Positions 7,948-39,731 of a DNA stretch of 64,000 nucleotides are shown here, in pieces. A program made the translations under genes and the position numbers. Position 1 is the stretch's first letter. Each line of letters begins with the position of its first letter. Source of the stretch: an uncultured Candidatus Saccharibacteria bacterium (GTDB lineage Bacteria > Patescibacteriota > Minisyncoccia > Minisyncoccales > CSSED10-335); contig CAZPFW010000001.1 in NCBI GenBank assembly GCA_964586065.1, positions 131,614 to 195,613 on the forward strand, read 5' to 3'. The notes under the pieces were generated by a model. That model saw nothing but the letters and a program-made list of their open reading frames with translations, ran no database searches and was not told the DNA's origin.

Positions 7948-9294
7948 ATGAACAAAAAAATACGGTCATTCATCTTTTTTTCTCTTGTGATAATTTTCTT
8001 AATCATCTCTCCTTTGGCTATCTTTTATTCCCAAGGATACAGATTTGATTCTAAGAATTTTCGAGTAGTTCAAACGGGAAGTTTTTATTTCAAAGTGACT
8101 CCTCGAAGCGTAGATATTAAAATCATCGAAGATAAAAACGACTTAATAGCAATGAAAAGAAAGACTGATTTTTTCTTTGGAACATCTTATGTGGAAAACA
8201 TTCTGCCTGGAAGATACAAGATAAGTGTCGGTAAGGACGGCTATCATGTATGGGAAAAGACATTGGAGGTAAGAGAAAAATTAGTCACTGAGATGAAGAA
8301 TATTGTTTTAATCCCCACAGATCCAATCTTTTCCATTATTGGAGGGAAAACATCTAATATTTTTCCTCTTTCAGGTAAGCGGGAAATGGCTGTGAAAGAG
8401 ATAATCGACAAAGATGATTGGAACCTTTTTCTTTATGATCCGGTAGGGGGTGGCTCAACCCAAATAATCTCTTCACAAGAATTAAAAGAAGAGCCGATCG
8501 ATGTTATCTCTTTTTATGGAAGAGACGAGATTCTTTTAAAGATAAACTCGGGTTGGTTGATTGTTGATACTCAAAATGAAAAAAGTTATTCAATTGATGA
8601 TAAAGAAAGGTTATTCTTAGACCCTAAAAGAGCTGATTCTGTACTCTATTTAGAAGAAAACAGATTAATCTCGTTCAATTACCTTAAAAAAGAGACTCAA
8701 TTAGTAGTAAAAGATGTAATTTCTTTCACTATTAAAGAGAATGGGGATATATTCATGATGTTGGAAGATGGTTCGTTTGCCCAAAACAACCAAACGTTAA
8801 GAACTCCTCGTTTCACAATATCAAAAGATTCCAACTGCGAGATGCGATTATTGGACTTGGAGCTCTTCGTGCTTAAAGACGATACTCTCTTTTTTCTTGA
8901 TAGAAAAGAATCACTTTTTAAGGAGATATCAAACTCTTCCCATCTACCCATCTTCTCGCCTGATAAAAGAAAAGCGGCATACTTTAATGACCACGAAATC
9001 TATGTAATTTATTTAGACAACATAACCGATCAACCTAAGAAAAGTTATGGTGAGAATTCTTTTTTAACGAGATTTTCAGAAACAATAAAAGGTGTTGATT
9101 GGTTAACTGATCATTATCTGATTTTAAGTGTCGGGGACAGTATAAAAATTATTGAAATCGACGATCGTGATCAGATAAATCTCGTAGACTTCGCCCTATT
9201 ACCCGATCATAAATCAATCTTTGATCAATATTCAAAGAGACTCTATGTCATCAGTAATAATAATCTTTTTGTTTCAAGAATCATTGTCTCTTAA
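7948..9294 (+). CDS. membrane-anchored protein with PEGA-like beta-sandwich segment, otherwise unknown
   Basis: N-terminal TM helix (FIFFSLVIIFLIISPLAIF). LPGRYKISVGKDGYHVWEKTLEV resembles the PEGA motif. The remaining ~330 aa are unassigned. Confidence 0.5.
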   Translation: MNKKIRSFIFFSLVIIFLIISPLAIFYSQGYRFDSKNFRVVQTGSFYFKVTPRSVDIKIIEDKNDLIAMKRKTDFFFGTSYVENILPGRYKISVGKDGYHVWEKTLEVREKLVTEMKNIVLIPTDPIFSIIGGKTSNIFPLSGKREMAVKEIIDKDDWNLFLYDPVGGGSTQIISSQELKEEPIDVISFYGRDEILLKINSGWLIVDTQNEKSYSIDDKERLFLDPKRADSVLYLEENRLISFNYLKKETQLVVKDVISFTIKENGDIFMMLEDGSFAQNNQTLRTPRFTISKDSNCEMRLLDLELFVLKDDTLFFLDRKESLFKEISNSSHLPIFSPDKRKAAYFNDHEIYVIYLDNITDQPKKSYGENSFLTRFSETIKGVDWLTDHYLILSVGDSIKIIEIDDRDQINLVDFALLPDHKSIFDQYSKRLYVISNNNLFVSRIIVS

Positions 9295-9977
9295 TTTTTA
9301 AGACATCTCACTGAAAAACCGTTCTCATTATCAACCGCTCCTCTGAAAATTCTATCATCTTTTCTGTCCAAAGCTCTCATCCATGACTTATCTAAGTTGA
9401 AGGCCACGCCCCAAAGACAAGCTTGATTATTTAATCCTTTAAACTCACCTGTTGAATTCATAAATCCCGCGGGCAAAATATTGAATTCAAAAACTCCTTC
9501 TCCCCATGATTTATCTTTAATGGCTTTACCAATCCCTTTTCCTCGCCAGCCATTAGAATCCACTTCAAGGGTATTAATGCCTAATATCTTTTCAAGATCT
9601 TTGAAGTCATCATCCCATGGAAGTCTCCATCCTTGAGGACAAATCTTTCTTGCATCTTCCGCATAATAGAGCCCTCCGTAAAGATCACAATTAGCGGGAT
9701 CATTATCGTAACAAAAAACTTTGACTTTTCCACCGTTAGCGTCAAAACCGCTCTTCATATTTTCAGCCATCCAGCACTGAAAGTCTATCTGTATGGTTTG
9801 ATACCTATTGCCATCCATATCAATAACCTCGTCTTCTCCGCATACAAGATTCTTGTTGTGTCCTTTTATTGATACAATCTTCTCTTCTCTCTTGAGTTGA
9901 AAAAAGATGACACCAATTACCAAAAGAAAAATAAAGACTGAGAATGTCAGAAAGAGAACTTTTTGATTAAACTTCAT
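9291..9977 (-). CDS. secreted/anchored protein with Fibrobacter-succinogenes-major-paralogous (FISUMP) type domain
   Basis: CWMAENM..., GGLYYAEDARKICPQGWRLPWDDDF, C-terminal GFSVRCLKN, plus an N-terminal hydrophobic anchor. I place the start at ATG 9977; the track start at 9989 is a GTG inside the rpsI terminator. Confidence 0.65.
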   Translation of the reverse strand: MKFNQKVLFLTFSVFIFLLVIGVIFFQLKREEKIVSIKGHNKNLVCGEDEVIDMDGNRYQTIQIDFQCWMAENMKSGFDANGGKVKVFCYDNDPANCDLYGGLYYAEDARKICPQGWRLPWDDDFKDLEKILGINTLEVDSNGWRGKGIGKAIKDKSWGEGVFEFNILPAGFMNSTGEFKGLNNQACLWGVAFNLDKSWMRALDRKDDRIFRGAVDNENGFSVRCLKN

Positions 9978-32670: not shown

Positions 32671-34776
32671 TTATCTCTTTTTCCCCTCAATAACGTCCTG
32701 CGCTATATTGGCCGGCAACTCGCTATAATGGTCAAACTCCATGATGGAGTTCCCTCTACCTTCAGTAAGAGATCTAAGTGAGGTAACGTAACCAAACATT
32801 TCGGAAAGAGGAACTTTGGCATTGATAACCTTCATTCCCATCATATCTTCGGTCTCTTCGATCTTACCTCTCCTTGAAGAGATATCCCCTATGATGTCTC
32901 CCAAGAATTCTGCCGGAACTGTTATTTCAACCTTCATCACTGGCTCAAGAAGAACCGGTCTCGCTTTTTTGCAAGCTTCTTGGAAAGCCATTGCACCAGC
33001 AATCTTGAAAGCAATCTCAGAAGAGTCAACTTCGTGAAAAGACCCATCATAGAGAGTAACCTTCAAGTCTGATATCGGATAACCGGCCACCACACCCTTG
33101 CCGCAACTTTCTTTGATTCCTTTCTCAACCGCCGGGATGTACTCTCTTGGAATAACTCCCCCCTTAATCTCATCGACGAACTCGAAACCTTCTCCCTCTT
33201 CTTTGGGCTCAACTCTGACGCAAACATGACCATATTGTCCCCGTCCCCCGCTCTGCTTAACATATTTACCTTCGGCTTCAGCAGAGTTTCTAATCGTTTC
33301 TCTGTATGCAACTTGGGGTCTTCCGACTTGGGCGTCAACTTTAAACTCTCTCTTCATTCTGTCCACCAATATTTCGAGATGCAACTCTCCCATTCCAGCG
33401 ATAACCGTCTCTCCCGTTTCTTGATCAGTTTTTATCTTAAAAGTTGGGTCTTCATCAGCTAATTTCTTTAAAGCTATTCCCATCTTCTCTTGATCCACTT
33501 TCGTTTTAGGCTCTATTCTGATGGATATTACTGGTTCAGGAAAAGTTATCTCTTCCAAAATTATCGGGTTGTTATTATCACACAGAGTATGACCGGTTGA
33601 TGTATTTTTAAGTCCTATCGTAGCTGCGATATCTCCCGCAAAAACCTCTTTCACATCTTCTCTTTCCGAAGAATGCATTCTGATTATCCTGCTAATTCGC
33701 TCATTCTCTCCAGTGGTTGAATTAAGAACATAGGAACCGGTAGTTAGACTTCCCGAATAAACCCTGAAGTATGTCAGAGTTCCGACAAAAGGGTCTGTGG
33801 CAATCTTAAAAGACAAAGCTGCAAAAGGTTCGTTGTCATCAGGTTTTCTGACAATCGTGTCTCCGCTCTTTGGATCAGTTCCCTCTACCGGAGGAATATC
33901 TATCGGTGAAGGAAGATAATCACAAACTGCGTCAAGCATTAATTGAACTCCTTTCTTTTTAAGCGCAGTTCCGCAAAGAACAGGTATAATCTTACAAGCG
34001 ACAGTCGCTCTTCTGATTACCGCGACGATCTCTTCTCTTGTTATATCTTCTTTCTCCAGGTATTTTTCAAAGAGAAATTCGTCTTCAGTGGCAATCTTCT
34101 CAAGCATCTTTTCTCTCCATTCATTTGCAGTCTCGGTCATATCCGAAGGAATCTCGGAAACAACCATTTCCTGTCCAAAATCACCTTTAAATTCAATGAG
34201 TTTCATATCGATAAGGTCAATAACTCCTCTAAAATCACTTTCTGTCCCAACGGGAATCTGAAGAGCTACCGCATTCGGAGTCAATTTCTTCCATATCGTA
34301 TCAATGGCAAAATCAAACGACGCCCCCATTCTGTCAAGCTTATTGATAAAACATATTCTGGGAGTCATGAATTTATCCGCTTGACGCCAAACGGTTTCGG
34401 TTTGCGGTTGCACACCGGCGACCCCGTCAAATACAACGACAGCGCCATCTAAAACTCTCAATGATCTCTGAACTTCCGCGGTGAAATCAATATGACCCGG
34501 GGTATCTATTATATTTATACGATGCTCATAATTTTTGTCTCCGGACCTGTAAGTCGGTATCCAAAAACATGTGGTCGCTGCAGATGTAATTGTTATTCCC
34601 CTCTCTTTTTCTTGCTCCATCCAGTCCATAATCGCAGCTCCTTCATGAACTTCTCCCATCTTATGCGATATTCCGGTATAGAATAAGACACATTCAGAGA
34701 CTGTCGTTTTCCCTGCATCTATATGAGCAATGATTCCGATATTTCTATATTTTTCTATCTTGTATTCTCTTGACAT
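32671..34776 (-). CDS. fusA: elongation factor G
   Basis: [22 protein letters not shown], and domains II-V collinear; 701 aa. Confidence 0.98.
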
Positions 34777-34816
34777 AATGAAAGCCGCTTTTAAAAAGCG
34801 TTAAATAATCTATAAA

Positions 34817-35284
34817 TTACCAAGCAAAGTGGGCAAAAGCCTTATTAGCTTCGGCCATTCTATGAACGTCCTCTTTCTTCTTAATCGCCGTTCCTGTATT
34901 AGAGGCGGCATTCAAAAGTTCTTCGGCAAGCTTCTCTTTCATGGGTCTTCCTTTCCTGGACTTGGCTGAATTGATAATCCATCTACTTGCCAAACTAAAT
35001 CTCCTATCCTTTCCAACAGGAATTGGAACTTGATAAGTAGCCCCTCCAACTCTTTTTGACCTTACTTCCATAGAAGGAGAAACATTATCAATTGCAGATT
35101 CGAAAATCGAAAGCGGATCTTTTTTCTTCTCTGCGACAATATCAAGAGCATCATAAACAACTCTTCTTGCCACAGATTTCTTCCCCCTCTCCATAAGATA
35201 ATTAATGAACTTAGAGAGAGCAACGCTGTTATATCTCACATCCGGAGCTATCTCTCTATCAATAATTTTTGTCCTTCTTCCCAT
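34817..35284 (-). CDS. rpsG: 30S ribosomal protein S7
   Basis: PD.RYNS....KFIN.LM..GKKS.A...[31 protein letters not shown]. Confidence 0.95.
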
Positions 35285-35297
35285 CTTTTAATTTAAG

Positions 35298-35705
35298 TTA
35301 TTTCTTCTTGGTCCCATATTTACTTCTGCTTCTCTTTCTATTCTCCACTCCTCCCGCATCCAAGACTCCTCTGACAACGTGATACCTTACTCCAGCAAGA
35401 TCTTTGACTTTTCCTCCTCTGATAACCGCAACTGAATGTTCTTGAAGATTATGACCTATACCGGGGATGTAAGCGGTAACTTCCATTCCATTACTTAATC
35501 TCATTCTTGCAACCTTTCTTAATGCAGAGTTCGGTTTCTTGGGAGTGACGGTAAACACCTTAATACAGACACCTCTTTTAAAAGGAGAGGGGTATTTCTT
35601 ACTCTTGTTCTTTATGGTATTGAATCCAAAGGAGAGAGCTGGTGTCTTACTGCTCTTTTGAACTTTCTTTCTTCCTTTTCTTACCAATTGGTTTACCGTA
35701 GGCAT
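35298..35705 (-). CDS. rpsL: 30S ribosomal protein S12
   Basis: [62 protein letters not shown]. Confidence 0.98.
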
Positions 35706-35766
35706 CTGATTTTAGAAATTTAAAAATAATTAAGGTTAAAGGCAATCTTAATTGCTTATCAAAAGC

Positions 35767-35794
35767 ATAATACAAAAAGAGGACAAAAAGTCAA
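35767..35794 (-). promoter_or_regulatory. putative promoter of the rpsL-rpsG-fusA (str) operon
   Basis: Minus strand TTGACT (35794-35789), 16 nt, TATTAT (35772-35767), leaving a leader of roughly 55-60 nt before rpsL. Confidence 0.5.
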
Positions 35795-35804
35795 TACTCA
35801 AAAA

Positions 35805-36482
35805 CTATACTCCTATTATTATTTTAAAGATTATAAGAACAGCTTGAATAATATACGGGAAGAATTTCAAAAATAAAAAGAGAAGCAGGAAAACTCCGAT
35901 GAATCCGATTTTAGCAAATAATCGAGCCGTCTTCTCTTCAATTGAAGGAAATATCGTAAAAAGGATATGAGATCCATCAAGCGGAGGAATTGGCATTAAA
36001 TTAAATACCGCCAAAAGAGTGTTTATAAAAACTATGACCAAGCACAGATAAAAAACTTGCCCCCAAAAGCCCGCCGTTATTGCAGTCTCGGTGGAGTAAA
36101 GAAAATTACCAACTATTGCCCCCTTCATCTCCGAAGCCAAAGGAATCAGACGAGATCCTATTCCGAATAACGCAGCTATCAAAAGATTGGAAAGCGGTCC
36201 GGCCAAAGAAACTTTAAGCCGTCCATATTTTTGATCATTGAAATTGTAAGGATTTATCGGCACCGGCTTAGCCCACCCAACAATAAAAGGGGCTCGCATT
36301 GCTATCAACAGGAAGGGAACAAAGAAAGATCCGACGGGATCAAGATGCTTGAGAGGATTAAGTGTTAATCTTTCTGCATATTTGGCAGTAGGATCTCCTA
36401 TTGAATTAGCCATACCTCCATGAGCCACCTCATGAATGACGATTGAGAATATAAGGATTGCTATAATAAAAACTGTTTCCAT
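35805..36482 (-). CDS. small M50-family (site-2 protease-like) membrane metalloprotease
   Basis: HEVAHG in TM1 and NLMPIPPLDGSHIL in a later TM; about six hydrophobic segments and no PDZ. Confidence 0.75.
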   Translation of the reverse strand: METVFIIAILIFSIVIHEVAHGGMANSIGDPTAKYAERLTLNPLKHLDPVGSFFVPFLLIAMRAPFIVGWAKPVPINPYNFNDQKYGRLKVSLAGPLSNLLIAALFGIGSRLIPLASEMKGAIVGNFLYSTETAITAGFWGQVFYLCLVIVFINTLLAVFNLMPIPPLDGSHILFTIFPSIEEKTARLFAKIGFIGVFLLLFLFLKFFPYIIQAVLIIFKIIIGV

Positions 36483-36516
36483 CTTTTGTTTTTAATAATA
36501 TCACATTCTTTTGCTC

Positions 36517-36544
36517 TTGTAAAAATAAGATATTGGTGTATATT
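36517..36544 (+). promoter_or_regulatory. possible promoter for rpmB-tRNA-Pro
   Basis: TTGTAA (36517-36522), 16 nt, TATATT (36539-36544), preceded by TG. Confidence 0.3.
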
Positions 36545-36578
36545 ACGAATACAGATTAATAATATTTAAGTCTAAATT

Positions 36579-36791
36579 ATGTCCAGAGAATGCGTTGTCT
36601 GTAAAAAGAAGACCGTCATTTCCAACCAAAGAAAGAAATTGATGTCCAAATACAATCCGACTCCCAAAAAGAGAAAATACCCGAATATTCAATCGATTTT
36701 TGTACCTGAAGACGCTCCGGCTCTATTTAAAGAGTTTGCCGGTAAAAGAATTAAAGCTTGTACAAAGTGCATCAAGGCCCTCTCGAAATAA
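36579..36791 (+). CDS. rpmB: 50S ribosomal protein L28 (divergent)
   Basis: MSRECVVCKKKTVISNQR... parallels the L28 N-terminus (MSR.C...GK....GN.RSH), and KRKYPNIQSIFV parallels KR.F.PNLQ. 70 aa and basic. Confidence 0.65.
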   Translation: MSRECVVCKKKTVISNQRKKLMSKYNPTPKKRKYPNIQSIFVPEDAPALFKEFAGKRIKACTKCIKALSK

Positions 36792-36798
36792 CGGTGGA

Positions 36799-36870
36799 CA
36801 GGCCGTAGTGTTAACGGCAGCACGAGTCCATGGGGTGGATTTAGTCCGAGTTCAAATCTCGGCGGCCTGA
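36799..36870 (+). tRNA. tRNA-Pro (anticodon GGG)
   Basis: Folded by hand. Acceptor CAGGCCG/CGGCCTG, D stem GTGT/GCAC with GG in the loop, anticodon stem AGTCC/GGATT, loop AT-GGG-GT, T arm CCGAG-TTCAAAT-CTCGG, discriminator A. CCA is not encoded. Confidence 0.85.
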
Positions 36871-36871
36871 A

Positions 36872-37046
36872 TGAAAAACGAAGAATCTTTCTTCGTTTTT
36901 TTAATAAAATAAAAGGACCCCGACAACTCTAGGGAAAGATCTTTAAAAATCCACTGGTGGGTGCCGAAGTCTCAACCCACGGGCTGAGAATCATATCCGA
37001 CTCCCTTGGGAAGTTTATTACAGATTTTCCAAAGAATCAGGGTCCT
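36872..37046 (-). ncRNA. candidate structured small RNA of unknown class
   Basis: Its own promoter lies 7 nt upstream (see 37053-37080). RNA residues 1-11 (AGGACCCUGAU) pair with 123-133 (GUCGGGGUCCU). A second 12-position helix pairs CUUUGGAAAAUC with GGAUUUUUAAAG. The apical hairpin is GUGGGU...C(UUCG)G...ACCCAC. It ends in UUUUAUUUU plus the 36877-36902 terminator. No ORF is present. Confidence 0.55.
36877..36902. terminator. bidirectional intrinsic terminator
   Basis: AACGAAGA-ATCTT-TCTTCGTT (8 bp), flanked by an A-run upstream and a T-run downstream. It can therefore terminate the plus-strand rpmB/tRNA-Pro transcript and the minus-strand sRNA/adk-like transcripts. Confidence 0.7.
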
Positions 37047-37052
37047 GAAATG

Positions 37053-37080
37053 ATTTTATCTTTTAGAAAGATAAAGTCAA
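37053..37080 (-). promoter_or_regulatory. putative promoter of the candidate sRNA
   Basis: Minus strand TTGACT (37080-37075), 16 nt, TAAAAT (37058-37053). The A at 37046, first base of the closing helix, lies 7 nt downstream. Confidence 0.5.
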
Positions 37081-37087
37081 TAGATCA

Positions 37088-38155
37088 TTAAAGGTTAAGG
37101 GCTTCAGTCATTTGAGAGATTAAAGAGACTACCACCGGAGGAGCCATGAGACTGTAGAATTGATCGCCTTCTTCATCTGTCAATATCCATGGAATCTCTT
37201 TTACCTCCACTTTTTGAGAAGATTCATTCCACTCAAAACAATACTCGGGAGTGATCTCATAATCATCTACATACTCTTTGGCTAAATTAACCGGAACTGC
37301 ATTTCTCAAAAGTATCTTTGGAATACCGTATAGTGAGAAAGCTTGCTTTATCAGCTTATCATCCGTTGCAAGTCGTTCTTTTATTGGTTCTATACCAAGC
37401 TCATCTCCCTCTTTTGAAATCATCTTAACTTCGCTGCATTCGGGATTATCACAGATGAGATCAAACTCTTTCTTCTCTGGGTCATAATTGATTTTTGAGC
37501 TTGGTAAGAGTTTAAGATTTCTTGACGTCTTGCAGTCAGGACAAACTCTTCTCCACTTGATTCTTTCATTGATTACACTGTTAGGAATATCTATTAAGAT
37601 GAAAAGGTCTGGATCCTCTCTGTAGCCGACAAGATCTCTAAAGAAGAGAGAATATGATATCTGATCCATATCTCTCGGGAATCCGTCAATAAAGATAACT
37701 TTCTTCTCCCTCTTTGCAATTTCTCTTTTAACTAAAGTAAGAATTAGATCAGTGGGAAGTAATGTTTTGGTGCTCCTCTGTTTAAGCATCTCTATTATCT
37801 CATCTATACTTAACCAACCTCTGCAATTCTTTTTAAGAAATTCAATGAGCTCTTCTTCTTTGACCGAATCGGCTAATTCGGCGTCGACGTCTCTTATCAT
37901 GTCTCCGATTGAGAAATGCTCCACTTTGTCATTGCCAATAATTTCCGCAAACATCTTGGCATAAGTCCCCTTCCCCGAGCTCTTCTTTCCCATCAGATAA
38001 GCGATAAATGTGTTACCTTTATCTATATGGTCTTTTATTTTCGCTATTTCAGGTCCCGCTTTCAATTCGAAATATTCTCTTCTTTCTTCCGGATCGGAGA
38101 GATTGAATTTTCTATCAGCTCCATCCTTTCTTGTTTTAAAAATTGGAAACTCCAT
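37088..38155 (-). CDS. adenylate-kinase-family nucleoside monophosphate kinase, long form
   Basis: P-loop MGKKSSGKGTYAK, IDGFPRDMDQ, an enlarged LID with CPDC...CDNPEC, and a ~50-aa N-terminal extension. Clearly distinct from adk at 20487-21182. Confidence 0.7.
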   Translation of the reverse strand: MEFPIFKTRKDGADRKFNLSDPEERREYFELKAGPEIAKIKDHIDKGNTFIAYLMGKKSSGKGTYAKMFAEIIGNDKVEHFSIGDMIRDVDAELADSVKEEELIEFLKKNCRGWLSIDEIIEMLKQRSTKTLLPTDLILTLVKREIAKREKKVIFIDGFPRDMDQISYSLFFRDLVGYREDPDLFILIDIPNSVINERIKWRRVCPDCKTSRNLKLLPSSKINYDPEKKEFDLICDNPECSEVKMISKEGDELGIEPIKERLATDDKLIKQAFSLYGIPKILLRNAVPVNLAKEYVDDYEITPEYCFEWNESSQKVEVKEIPWILTDEEGDQFYSLMAPPVVVSLISQMTEALNL

Positions 38156-38158
38156 TTT

Positions 38159-38851
38159 CTATTTTTTATCATTTTTGATTATAAACTCCACTGCCTCTTC
38201 AGCAGTATCCACTAAAGTAAAAAGACTCAAGTCTTCTTTACTTATCGCTCGACGTTTTTGGTAAAGTTCGGTCTCAAACCAACTAAAGAGCGGTTGCCAA
38301 TAATCTTTACCCACAACAACTATTGTAACTGGATGAGATAATTTCTTCGTCTGCAACAACATTACCATCTCAAAGAATTCATCAAGAGTCCCATAACCTC
38401 CCGGAAAAAAAACATAGACCGAAGACGCAAGAGACATCATCACTTTTCTAGTAAAAAAATAATGAAAGCCAACCGCTTTTTTAACATACTTGTTTGTCCT
38501 TTGTCCATCAGGGAGTTCAATGTTTATTCCAACTGACTCTCCTTTTGCTTCAACAGCTCCTCTGTTTGCCGCCTCCATAATACCGGGACCTCCACCGCTT
38601 ATTATCGTATAACCTTTCTCTGAAAGCAGTCTGCTCAGTTTTTGAGCCTTTTCATATTCGAGATTATTTTCCGACAATCGAGTAGCTCCGAAAAAAGTAG
38701 CCGATCTTTTATCAAGTTCCGATATGAGCTCAAAACCTTCTATGAACTCGGCCATTATTTTGAAGATCTTCCAGGGAAATGATTTTCTGAAATCATCTTT
38801 TGTAAGAGGAATATTCGGATTTAACGCTTCCTTTTTTTCTCCTTTTTTCAT
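38159..38851 (-). CDS. LOG/TIGR00730-family Rossmann protein (nucleotide N-glycosidase/phosphoribohydrolase-like)
   Basis: GGGPGIMEAANRGA and PGGYGTLDEF signature motifs. Confidence 0.8.
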   Translation of the reverse strand: MKKGEKKEALNPNIPLTKDDFRKSFPWKIFKIMAEFIEGFELISELDKRSATFFGATRLSENNLEYEKAQKLSRLLSEKGYTIISGGGPGIMEAANRGAVEAKGESVGINIELPDGQRTNKYVKKAVGFHYFFTRKVMMSLASSVYVFFPGGYGTLDEFFEMVMLLQTKKLSHPVTIVVVGKDYWQPLFSWFETELYQKRRAISKEDLSLFTLVDTAEEAVEFIIKNDKK

Positions 38852-38852
38852 T

Positions 38853-39731
38853 TCATTGATTAAAAGTCAAACCGTCTGATACAATTTTTATACTCCCTTC
38901 AGTGTCAGTCCTTAGGATTTCTATACCATAATCTGACAAGATTTCCAAGGTCTCTTTATGGGGATGACCGTAACTATTACCCTTCCCCGATGAGATTATG
39001 GCGATTGTGGGAGACACTGCTTCCAGAAACTCCCTTGAAGTTGATGTTTTACTTCCGTGATGAGCGACTTTTAAGACATCTGATTTCAAATTCATAACGC
39101 GACAAACATTTGATGGTTTCAATTCTTGAGTGCAACTGTCAACCATCTCCACAAGCTCTTTTTCGTTCATCGCATAAGTATCTCCCGTAAAAAGAAACTT
39201 CCCTTGGTTTGAAACCAAACGAGCTATTATTGACGTCTCATTCAAATCACTCGCTTCTTCAATCCGATTTAAAGGATAGAGAATGTCGATATAAAAACTC
39301 TTGCCTTTAATTCTTTGACCACCTTGTGCAATCGTTGTTTCTATTTGAGAAATTGAATCTATCCATTTCTGATTTAAGAGATCGTCTTCCGAAACACCGT
39401 TCCAAATAACCCAATTTACATCATAAGAATCTATCACTTCAATCAATCCTTCCAAATGATCGCTATGAGCGTGAGATAGAATGATCAGATCAATTCTTCT
39501 CTCCCAGAAAGGAATCTCTTTGGCTATTCTCTCTTTTATTATGGACCCCGGACCTCCGTCGACTAAAATCTTATGTCCCTCGGGAGTCTTTATCAATGCT
39601 GCATCTCCTTGACCCACGTCAAAGAAGACAACCTCCATTCCATTACAAGAAGACATCTCATAAACAACACCCCAAGCGATAAGATTTACTAAAAAAAGAG
39701 TCGATAAAATTAAAAGAGACTTTCTGTTCAT
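38853..39731 (-). CDS. exported metallo-beta-lactamase-fold protein resembling the C-terminal domain of ComEC/Rec2
   Basis: N-terminal signal/anchor (LLILSTLFLVNLIAWGV), FFDVGQGDAALI, LILSHAHSDHLEGL, VAHHGS. The ComEC membrane channel domain is absent. Confidence 0.75.
   Translation of the reverse strand: MNRKSLLILSTLFLVNLIAWGVVYEMSSCNGMEVVFFDVGQGDAALIKTPEGHKILVDGGPGSIIKERIAKEIPFWERRIDLIILSHAHSDHLEGLIEVIDSYDVNWVIWNGVSEDDLLNQKWIDSISQIETTIAQGGQRIKGKSFYIDILYPLNRIEEASDLNETSIIARLVSNQGKFLFTGDTYAMNEKELVEMVDSCTQELKPSNVCRVMNLKSDVLKVAHHGSKTSTSREFLEAVSPTIAIISSGKGNSYGHPHKETLEILSDYGIEILRTDTEGSIKIVSDGLTFNQ

Follow-up and report, generated by a model that had tools for sequence, protein, structure and literature searches.

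A short structured RNA beside an ADK-like gene of Patescibacteria is very probably a divergent 6S RNA

An RNA gene between an ADK-like gene and a tRNA gene

In the 64-kb window, by which we mean the whole stretch of DNA that was analysed, the minus strand carries a structured RNA of 133 nt at positions 36914-37046 (covariance model match at 36915-37045), which is predicted to be a mini 6S RNA. An ADK-like gene of 355 aa (PF00406; 37088-38155) lies directly upstream on the same strand, its stop codon being located 41 nt from the RNA start, and a tRNA-Pro(GGG) gene (36799-36870) is convergent with the RNA on the other side. The RNA has a GC content of 47.4%, as compared with 19-22% in the flanking spacers and 38% in the window, in agreement with a preliminary description made from the sequence, which had noted a segment richer in GC than its spacer. 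The same description had seen no plausible ORF there. Stops are indeed present in all three frames of the RNA strand, leaving no sense ORF in the RNA, and the sole ORF is antisense and 44 aa long.

The sigma-70-type promoter that had been proposed on the minus strand (TTGACT-16-TAAAAT, 37080-37053) was found by the promoter scan. Its -35 hexamer TTGACT is at 37075-37080 and its -10 hexamer TAAAAT at 37053-37058, with a spacing of 16 nt and a predicted start near 37046, 7 nt downstream. Directly 3' of the closing stem, the sequence reads as a U-run, UUUUAUUUU (36905-36913, minus strand), followed by the hairpin AAAAACGAAGAA-AGA-UUCUUCGUUUUU at ~36874-36900 on the same strand, with a fold energy of -11.2 kcal/mol. 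A terminator is therefore found after the 3' arm, where the preliminary description had placed one. Transcription may first end, or the RNA be processed, at the U-run, which would give an RNA of ~135-142 nt. The hairpin would be a bidirectional intrinsic terminator shared with the convergent tRNA-Pro gene, leading to a primary transcript of ~175 nt; it is missing from the consensus scan list because it contains fewer than three G-C pairs. With a near-consensus sigma-70 promoter and a terminator of its own, the RNA is a gene in its own right.

Homologues of the ADK-like protein number in the thousands and, where their sources are named, come from Parcubacteria, Paceibacteria or Patescibacteria. 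Via an alignment of ADK-like proteins, we retrieved 80 loci, the genomes of which bear labels such as Nealsonbacteria, Paceibacterota and Wildermuthbacteria. In 47 loci, nhmmer run with the window segment detected a homologous stretch just 3' of the ADK-like gene and on its strand. A first covariance model (R1), built from a 9-sequence seed whose structure was drawn and annotated by hand and followed by covariance model realignment, gave a single full-length match per locus in 66 of 81 sources, with up to 152 bits on the sense strand and at most 41 bits on the antisense strand; the window copy scored 60.3 bits (E 2.4e-11). With R2, a second model of the family based on the 66 sequences, the window copy reached 82.6 bits (E 1.2e-16) and was the sole match in the 64-kb window. 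Family members are 122-147 nt long, with a median of 137 nt. Fifteen loci had no match with R1, and a filter-free search with R2 regained only one of them, L030. Among the remaining R1-negative loci, about four are truncated contigs and the others have no RNA within 3 kb of the ADK-like gene.

The homologues are found almost always just after the ADK-like gene, and this position, kept in most loci, together with the short distance from its stop codon on the same strand, is what would be expected if the RNA belonged to that gene as its 3' UTR, as a structure terminating its transcription or as a cis-regulatory element. We consider such a role very improbable, given that a near-consensus promoter separates the stop codon from the RNA not only in the window but also in 53 of the 66 family members (strict motif TTGAC-N16-18-TANNNT), and that across the family the end of the -10 element is ~5 nt from the model start, which is the first paired base, at the base of P1. 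In addition, the RNA is located hundreds to more than 1000 nt away from the ADK-like gene at six loci (L051, L037, L019, L046, L059 and L055). A rod of 130 nt that covaries and bears invariant loop sequences also far exceeds the needs of a terminator. A hairpin followed by T4 or longer is present 3' of the RNA in 50 of the 66 members, and a TTGACA/TATAAT promoter, the conserved core and a downstream terminator are visible in the raw homologue sequences.

The RNA had been presented as a candidate novel sRNA. What holds of this proposal is a stand-alone non-coding RNA running from promoter to terminator and conserved in dozens of related genomes. The idea of a new class finds no support, and the RNA is best read as a further, divergent member of the known 6S class and not as a new kind of RNA.

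A conserved rod with a central bubble

The 133-nt RNA has a minimum free energy of -50.4 kcal/mol (z = -3.19), and none of 200 shuffled sequences was as stable, confirming that it is highly structured. In each of the 48 minimum free energy folds of homologues, the RNA forms a rod interrupted by a large internal loop. MAFFT followed by RNAalifold on the raw homologues recovered P4 and P5 alone, with abundant compensatory changes, because the outer stems were misaligned, and this approach was replaced by the seed-based covariance model alignment. In the resulting 66-sequence alignment, the 40 consensus pairs are formed in 92.5% of the cells, versus 74.0% in shuffled alignments and 36-50% with partners slid. 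Double (compensatory) changes are found in 39 of the 40 pairs, and none of 500 shuffles reached the observed value.

From the outside in, the rod consists of P1, P2, a P2b of 2 bp, P3, the central bubble, P4, an asymmetric loop and P5, all coordinates below being on the minus strand. P1 pairs residues 1-11 (AGGACCCUGAU, 37036-37046) with residues 123-133 (GUCGGGGUCCU, 36914-36924). This closing helix of 11 bp, already recognized in the preliminary description, is present in the minimum free energy fold and is supported by covariation among the 66 homologues, with changes on both sides in all 8 modelled pairs and 91.3% of the cells paired. According to the covariance model alignment, the 5' strands of P2, P2b and P3 correspond to residues 13-29 (CUUUGGAAAAUCUGUAA, 37018-37034) and their 3' strands to residues 101-120 (36927-36946); helices 2-4 are paired in 84-94% of the cells, with compensatory changes in every pair. 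P3 is the helix immediately before the bubble.

The central bubble measures ~14 nt on its 5' side and 12 nt on its 3' side across the family. In the window copy, its 5' strand spans residues 30-41 (37006-37017, the UAAUAAACUUCCCAA region), which are unpaired in the consensus (family median 14 nt), and its 3' strand (36947-36958) begins with an invariant A-C, that of CCCAC (36957-36961), followed by ACCAGUGGAUUU. On the apical side of the bubble, P4 is formed by GGG-A-GUCGGA (36996-37005, with the invariant GGGAG at 37001-37005) and UUCGGC-A-CCC (36959-36968), as judged by alignments and column counts, so that AGGGAGUCGGA pairs with UUCGGCACCC in the window copy. Its architecture is GGG, an A/A or A-U position, GYC and then a non-Watson-Crick zone, with covariation in GUC/GAC. 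The blocks GGG-A-GYC and GRC-A-CCCAC(C/U)UGGA beside the bubble are nearly invariant among the 66 sequences (GGG 64-65, A 61, CCC 63-65, A 64, C 65), and read GGGAGUC...GGCACCCACC in the window copy. They were defined before the match to 6S RNA described below came to light.

Beyond P4, the family-specific asymmetric loop N-A-U-G-A (36991-36995) faces a single C at 36969. Its columns contain A in 59, U in 64, G in 51 and A in 45 of the 66 sequences, and the opposite C in 50. A kink-turn was considered for this AUGA/C loop and rejected by inspection, the required G-A being absent from the non-bulged strand. The rod ends with the apical hairpin P5, UCUCAGCC-CGUG-GGUUGAGA (36970-36989), whose 8 pairs all show compensatory changes and which is paired in 96.6% of the cells; it was also regained by the sequence-only MAFFT alignment. 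The stem covaries freely and is capped by a YNNG-type tetraloop of variable sequence.

Other inner pairings had been put forward in the preliminary description, namely a helix between residues 13-24 and 95-106, a GUGGGU/ACCCAC apex around a C(UUCG)G loop and a potential UUCCCU/AGGGAG pseudoknot. These can form in the window sequence and are not conserved. Over the 66 homologues, they are compatible with 63.2% of the cells versus 63.6% after shuffling, 453 of 500 shuffles being as high, and no covariation was detected for them.

A hairpin-like rod of a size near that of 4.5S RNA, present once per locus, could also suggest a divergent form of another housekeeping RNA such as the SRP RNA. The conserved domain IV of bacterial SRP RNA is made of a GNAR tetraloop with symmetric and asymmetric loops. 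The apical loop of the family is of the variable YNNG type on a stem that covaries freely, no GNAR loop with domain IV internal loops being present, and neither the window copy (at E <= 10) nor 20 relatives gave an SRP, tmRNA, RNase P or Y-RNA match in Rfam, making this identity hardly credible. The preliminary description was thus correct in not assigning the segment to SRP RNA.

Relation to the 6S RNA family of Rfam

When the window copy was submitted to Rfam in 161-nt and 701-nt searches, no family matched it at E <= 10, and the neighbouring tRNA alone was found. Neither the window copy nor any of 20 tested family loci reached the gathering threshold of the 6S family RF00013 (46.4 bits). 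The sole weak match was obtained with L032, at 24 bits (E 0.0024 in a 181-nt search), the other 19 loci giving none. The alignment of L032 to RF00013 runs from end to end, and its columns of highest confidence are GGGAGCC and GGCACCCACCU. The RF00013 consensus can be written ...CuGAgCC-(16-nt bubble)-GGG-a-gccc...gggc-a-CCCACCUggaA-(bubble)-GGuUCaAg..., and in this alignment the family blocks occupy the matching positions, the third G-C pair being followed in both by a 1x1 A/A loop and the bubbles being of similar size (16 and 13 consensus positions). The 5' bubble (37006-37017) aligns to the 16-nt 5' bubble of the consensus, the P4 block matches "GGGagcc" and the 3' bubble block aligns to "CCCACCUggaA". 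Such model-to-sequence evidence is thin by itself, since ten further relatives showed no 6S match. In the reverse direction, R2 did not match E. coli ssrS at E <= 10, with filters off too.

Metagenome contigs were scanned for GGGAGCC-N30-60-GGCACCCACCT. Of 34 motif loci run through Rfam, 15 passed the 6S gathering score at the motif site and 6 more were sub-threshold 6S matches, indicating that the invariant core of the family is a specific 6S signature. R2 matched 20 of 80 motif-selected loci. Strong canonical 6S RNAs are among the 60 that it did not match, and the shared motif alone therefore cannot explain the scores of bridging loci, that is, of nine loci that both pass the 6S gathering score and are matched by R2, four of them with R2 E <= 0.0015.

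Since these loci were picked by a motif common to both models, both scores are somewhat inflated in the following values, given as RF00013 and R2 bits: L147 scored 48.1 and 38.1 (R2 E 1.7e-5; 156 nt), L127 69.9 and 36.1 (161 nt), L128 56.7 and 33.0, L108 72.0 and 29.8 (160 nt), L146 80.1 and 27.5, L103 57.5 and 26.4, L093 104.9 and 24.8, L120 70.6 and 23.2, and L087 88.1 and 20.1. The strongest R2 matches (L158, L149, L148, L106 and L126) had no 6S match in Rfam. Taken together, these loci grade from canonical 6S RNAs into the mini forms.

In the R2 alignments, which are collinear for L127, L108 and L147, P3 coincides with the 6S downstream helix (UUGAACC/GGUUCA), and both bubble strands, P4 and the apical hairpin line up as well; their 5' bubble reads AACAC... 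These short 6S RNAs of uncultured bacteria, which pass RF00013, share with the family a collinear central domain and an apical arm of about equal size. They differ from it by an extra outer segment of the closing stem, by the UUGAACC/GGUUCA downstream helix and by lacking the AUGA/C loop.

By sequence comparison, the RNA is linked through intermediate sequences to RNAs above the Rfam 6S threshold. Taken together with the RF00013 alignment of L032, the bridging loci show that the passing remark in the preliminary description on a 6S-type rod was the correct lead. We conclude that the 133-nt RNA is very probably a miniaturised and divergent 6S RNA (ssrS-type) of a CPR/Patescibacteria bacterium, overlooked by the curated Rfam model. 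In the literature that we searched, no relevant account of a 6S RNA or other structured RNA from CPR/Patescibacteria turned up.

Proposed function and comparison with known RNAs

6S RNA is a bacterial open-promoter mimic that sequesters RNA polymerase. Key contacts with the sigma-70/sigma-A holoenzyme are made by a "-10-like" element located in the 3' bubble, from A131 to G136 in E. coli, and, within the apical arm, by a "-35-like" region; RNA polymerase then transcribes a short product RNA (pRNA) that starts in the 5' bubble and runs into the helix next to it, leading to unwinding, refolding and release of the enzyme (PMC8876501). In the family, the 3' bubble starts with the invariant A-C and (C/U)UGGA, to which the segment A131-CCUUG of E. 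coli 6S RNA (A131-C132 for the A-C) corresponds by alignment only.

By analogy, the RNA would mimic an open promoter and lie in the DNA channel of the RNA polymerase holoenzyme that carries the housekeeping sigma. Sigma would find its "-10-like" contact in the invariant A-C that opens the 3' bubble strand, and the apical arm with its conserved AUGA/C loop may form the upstream or "-35-like" side. Upon a rise in NTP, the polymerase would copy the 5' bubble strand and the 5' strand of P3 into a short product RNA. The putative template region is the 5' bubble strand at residues 30-41, and a start of synthesis at U30 would give the window copy a pRNA of approximately 5'-AUUACAGAUUUUCC. This copying would unwind P3, and the RNA would then refold and the enzyme be released.

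The 3' bubble (UUGGA) is able to pair with the freed 3' strand of P3 (UCCAG) in most members, like an E. coli-type release hairpin. Cells compatible with this hairpin amount to 76.6%, versus 39-55% with partners slid, a level reached by 47 of 500 shuffles and showing no covariation beyond that of the shuffles. In the window copy, GGAUUU and AGAUCU could form this pairing. Two hallmarks have been reported for pRNAs, an adenine adjacent to the start site and a GG at position 4/5 or 5/6 of the pRNA (PMC8414754). The first of these would be matched by a (C/U)-A step that is conserved at the 5' border of the bubble (ACAAA; in the window, UAAUAAA). The predicted pRNA would carry CC and not GG, because the P3 template is CUGG, without CC. 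As for size, B. subtilis 6S-1 can be cut down to the bubble with two short arms and still go through the whole 6S cycle in vitro (PMC8876501), making a 6S RNA of ~133 nt plausible.

Part of these data would also fit a CPR-specific structured sRNA resembling or derived from 6S RNA and doing another job away from RNA polymerase, for example by binding a protein via the GA...AUGA/C motif. Rfam gave no 6S match for the window copy or for 19 of the 20 relatives tested, family members are shorter than the 6S RNAs known so far and carry a nearly invariant asymmetric loop absent from canonical 6S examples, and the predicted pRNA lacks the GG hallmark. The most conserved nucleotides are, however, exactly those of the 6S core, with which they share both structural position and bubble geometry, and the intermediate sequences are significant with both models. 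Moreover, no other partner gene is consistently linked to the RNA, even the ADK-like neighbour being absent at a few loci that bear the RNA further away, so we regard this sRNA as distinctly unlikely.

Descent from 6S RNA with a changed function of the mini-6S lineage, through another way of engaging the polymerase or a CPR-specific partner, would make a distinct 6S-derived class, which we consider unlikely. Hints in this direction might be the nearly invariant GA...AUGA/C loop, the shortened closing stem and the GG-less template; such RNAs might, for instance, do without pRNA-driven release or be recognized by a different sigma or an accessory factor.

The RNA might also bind core RNA polymerase and not the holoenzyme, as does the actinobacterial Ms1, described as related to 6S RNA in structure yet binding the core (PMC9130861). 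A rod-plus-bubble architecture by itself indeed fails to separate Ms1-type RNAs from 6S RNAs. We judge core binding highly improbable, since the family retains the 6S sequence core, including the "-10-like" A-C contacted by sigma, and since its bridged relatives are matches to RF00013 and not to Ms1, which was matched in none of the Rfam searches with the window copy and 20 relatives. A divergent 6S RNA acting on the holoenzyme is the reading retained here.

6S RNA belongs to the small number of regulatory RNAs that are near-universal in bacteria, and standard annotation leans on RF00013. This model misses a whole CPR clade of the Paceibacteria/Nealsonbacteria type, whose genomes would therefore seem to be without 6S RNA. 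If our identification is true, ultra-small host-dependent bacteria with genomes of ~0.6 Mb keep a growth-phase control of RNA polymerase. The family would then represent a natural 6S RNA of ~130 nt, near the minimal in vitro constructs, which helps to define the essential 6S parts, and the 66-sequence alignment and its model could extend the Rfam family.

Like the 6S RNAs of RF00013 (E. coli SsrS, B. subtilis 6S-1), the family RNA is a stand-alone gene with a sigma-70 promoter and a rod made of a closing stem, a central bubble with strands of similar length and an apical stem. It shares with them the core GGG-A-GCC ... GGC-A-CCCACCUGGAA beside the bubble. Its P3 (CUGG/CCAG) sits where the "downstream" helix P2 of 6S RNA sits (CUGA/UCAG), and in most members a 3' bubble segment might pair with the released 3' strand of P3 in the manner of 6S RNA. 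Described 6S RNAs are ~200 nt long (PMC8876501), and against a 6S range put at ~150-200 or ~160-200 nt the family (122-147 nt) is reduced mainly in its closing stem. It further differs by the conserved N-A-U-G-A/C asymmetric loop of the apical arm, which canonical 6S examples do not have, and by a template strand devoid of the CC that lies behind the "GG" hallmark of pRNAs.

Ms1 of Actinobacteria likewise has the shape of a 6S-like rod containing an internal bubble, and it is found in association with RNA polymerase (PMC9130861). It differs from the family in binding core RNA polymerase, in being much longer and in not having the 6S sequence core. In the engineered truncated 6S-1 RNAs, as would be the case here, a bubble with short flanking helices suffices for sigma-A RNA polymerase binding, pRNA synthesis and release; those are laboratory constructs with a ~10-fold lower affinity (PMC8876501), whereas the family RNA is a natural conserved gene.

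Gene order around the mini-6S RNA

The mini-6S RNA, a ~133-nt structured RNA read as a shortened, divergent 6S RNA, lies in a gene neighbourhood on the minus strand (window 32671-39731) whose order is MBL-fold hydrolase, LOG/"lysine decarboxylase"-like protein, ADK-like protein, mini-6S, M50 peptidase, rpsL, rpsG and fusA. The order MBL-fold hydrolase, LOG-like, ADK-like and mini-6S is kept in the identical contigs that we retrieved. In L051, L037, L019, L046, L059 and L055, loci retrieved from related genomes, the RNA is separated from the ADK-like gene by hundreds to more than 1000 nt, and a filter-free search detected no mini-6S within ~3 kb of this gene in L017, L026, L038, L047, L056, L058, L061, L065, L072 and L076. 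Since some loci are devoid of a nearby RNA and others carry it at a distance, the association is one of synteny and not an obligate pairing.

The "adk-like" gene itself (window 37088-38155, minus strand) encodes a 355-aa protein, and adenylate kinases are typically far shorter than this product. The PF00406 match is partial, covering residues 130-264 only. Four cysteines of the protein are invariant (C205, C208, C235 and C240), and they suggest a putative zinc-binding lid. The ADK-like protein is very common across the CPR, with 4200 matches at E <= 0.001.

A convergent tRNA-Pro

Between mini-6S and the M50 peptidase gene, a tRNA-Pro(GGG) is found on the opposite strand (window 36799-36870, plus strand). 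It was identified by ARAGORN as well as by a cmscan of 701 nt, in which it scored 47.1 bits against a tRNA threshold of 29. This tRNA was absent from the Rfam gathering scan of the whole window, a miss that looks like a loss at the speed filter. The tRNA gene converges on mini-6S and the two share a bidirectional terminator; in many related loci, as in the window, mini-6S is likewise followed by a convergent tRNA.

Antisense and metagenome matches

The covariance model of the family also matched the reverse complement of mini-6S (in L066, L073, L063 and others), scoring at most 41 bits, whereas sense-strand matches reached as much as 152 bits. Such antisense scoring is expected because mini-6S is a near-symmetric rod. 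If kept, these matches would contaminate the alignment; they are included in alignment A5 and left out of A6, which holds 66 mini-6S sequences.

Among the metagenome contigs scanned with the 6S core motif pattern (GGGAGCC, 30-60 nt, second conserved block), L104, L122 and L130 contain the pattern, yet gave no match to the Rfam 6S family RF00013 at E <= 1. They are either chance motif matches or further divergent 6S-like RNAs. On another contig, L087, the Rfam family S35 (Staphylococcus sRNA 35) was matched at 9160-9352 (plus strand) with 83.8 bits. A canonical 6S gene lies ~200 nt away from this match, which is unrelated to mini-6S.

An asymmetric loop in the apical arm

Ten base pairs above the central bubble of the rod, the mini-6S family carries a nearly invariant asymmetric internal loop in which N-A-U-G-A faces a single C (window 36991-36995 and 36969, minus strand; A6 columns 82-89 and 127). 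Directly below it lies a non-Watson-Crick N-G/N-R zone. As a guess, the loop may be the upstream or "-35-like" contact of the mini-6S lineage. The canonical 6S RNAs that we inspected, in contrast to the mini-6S family, are devoid of this loop.
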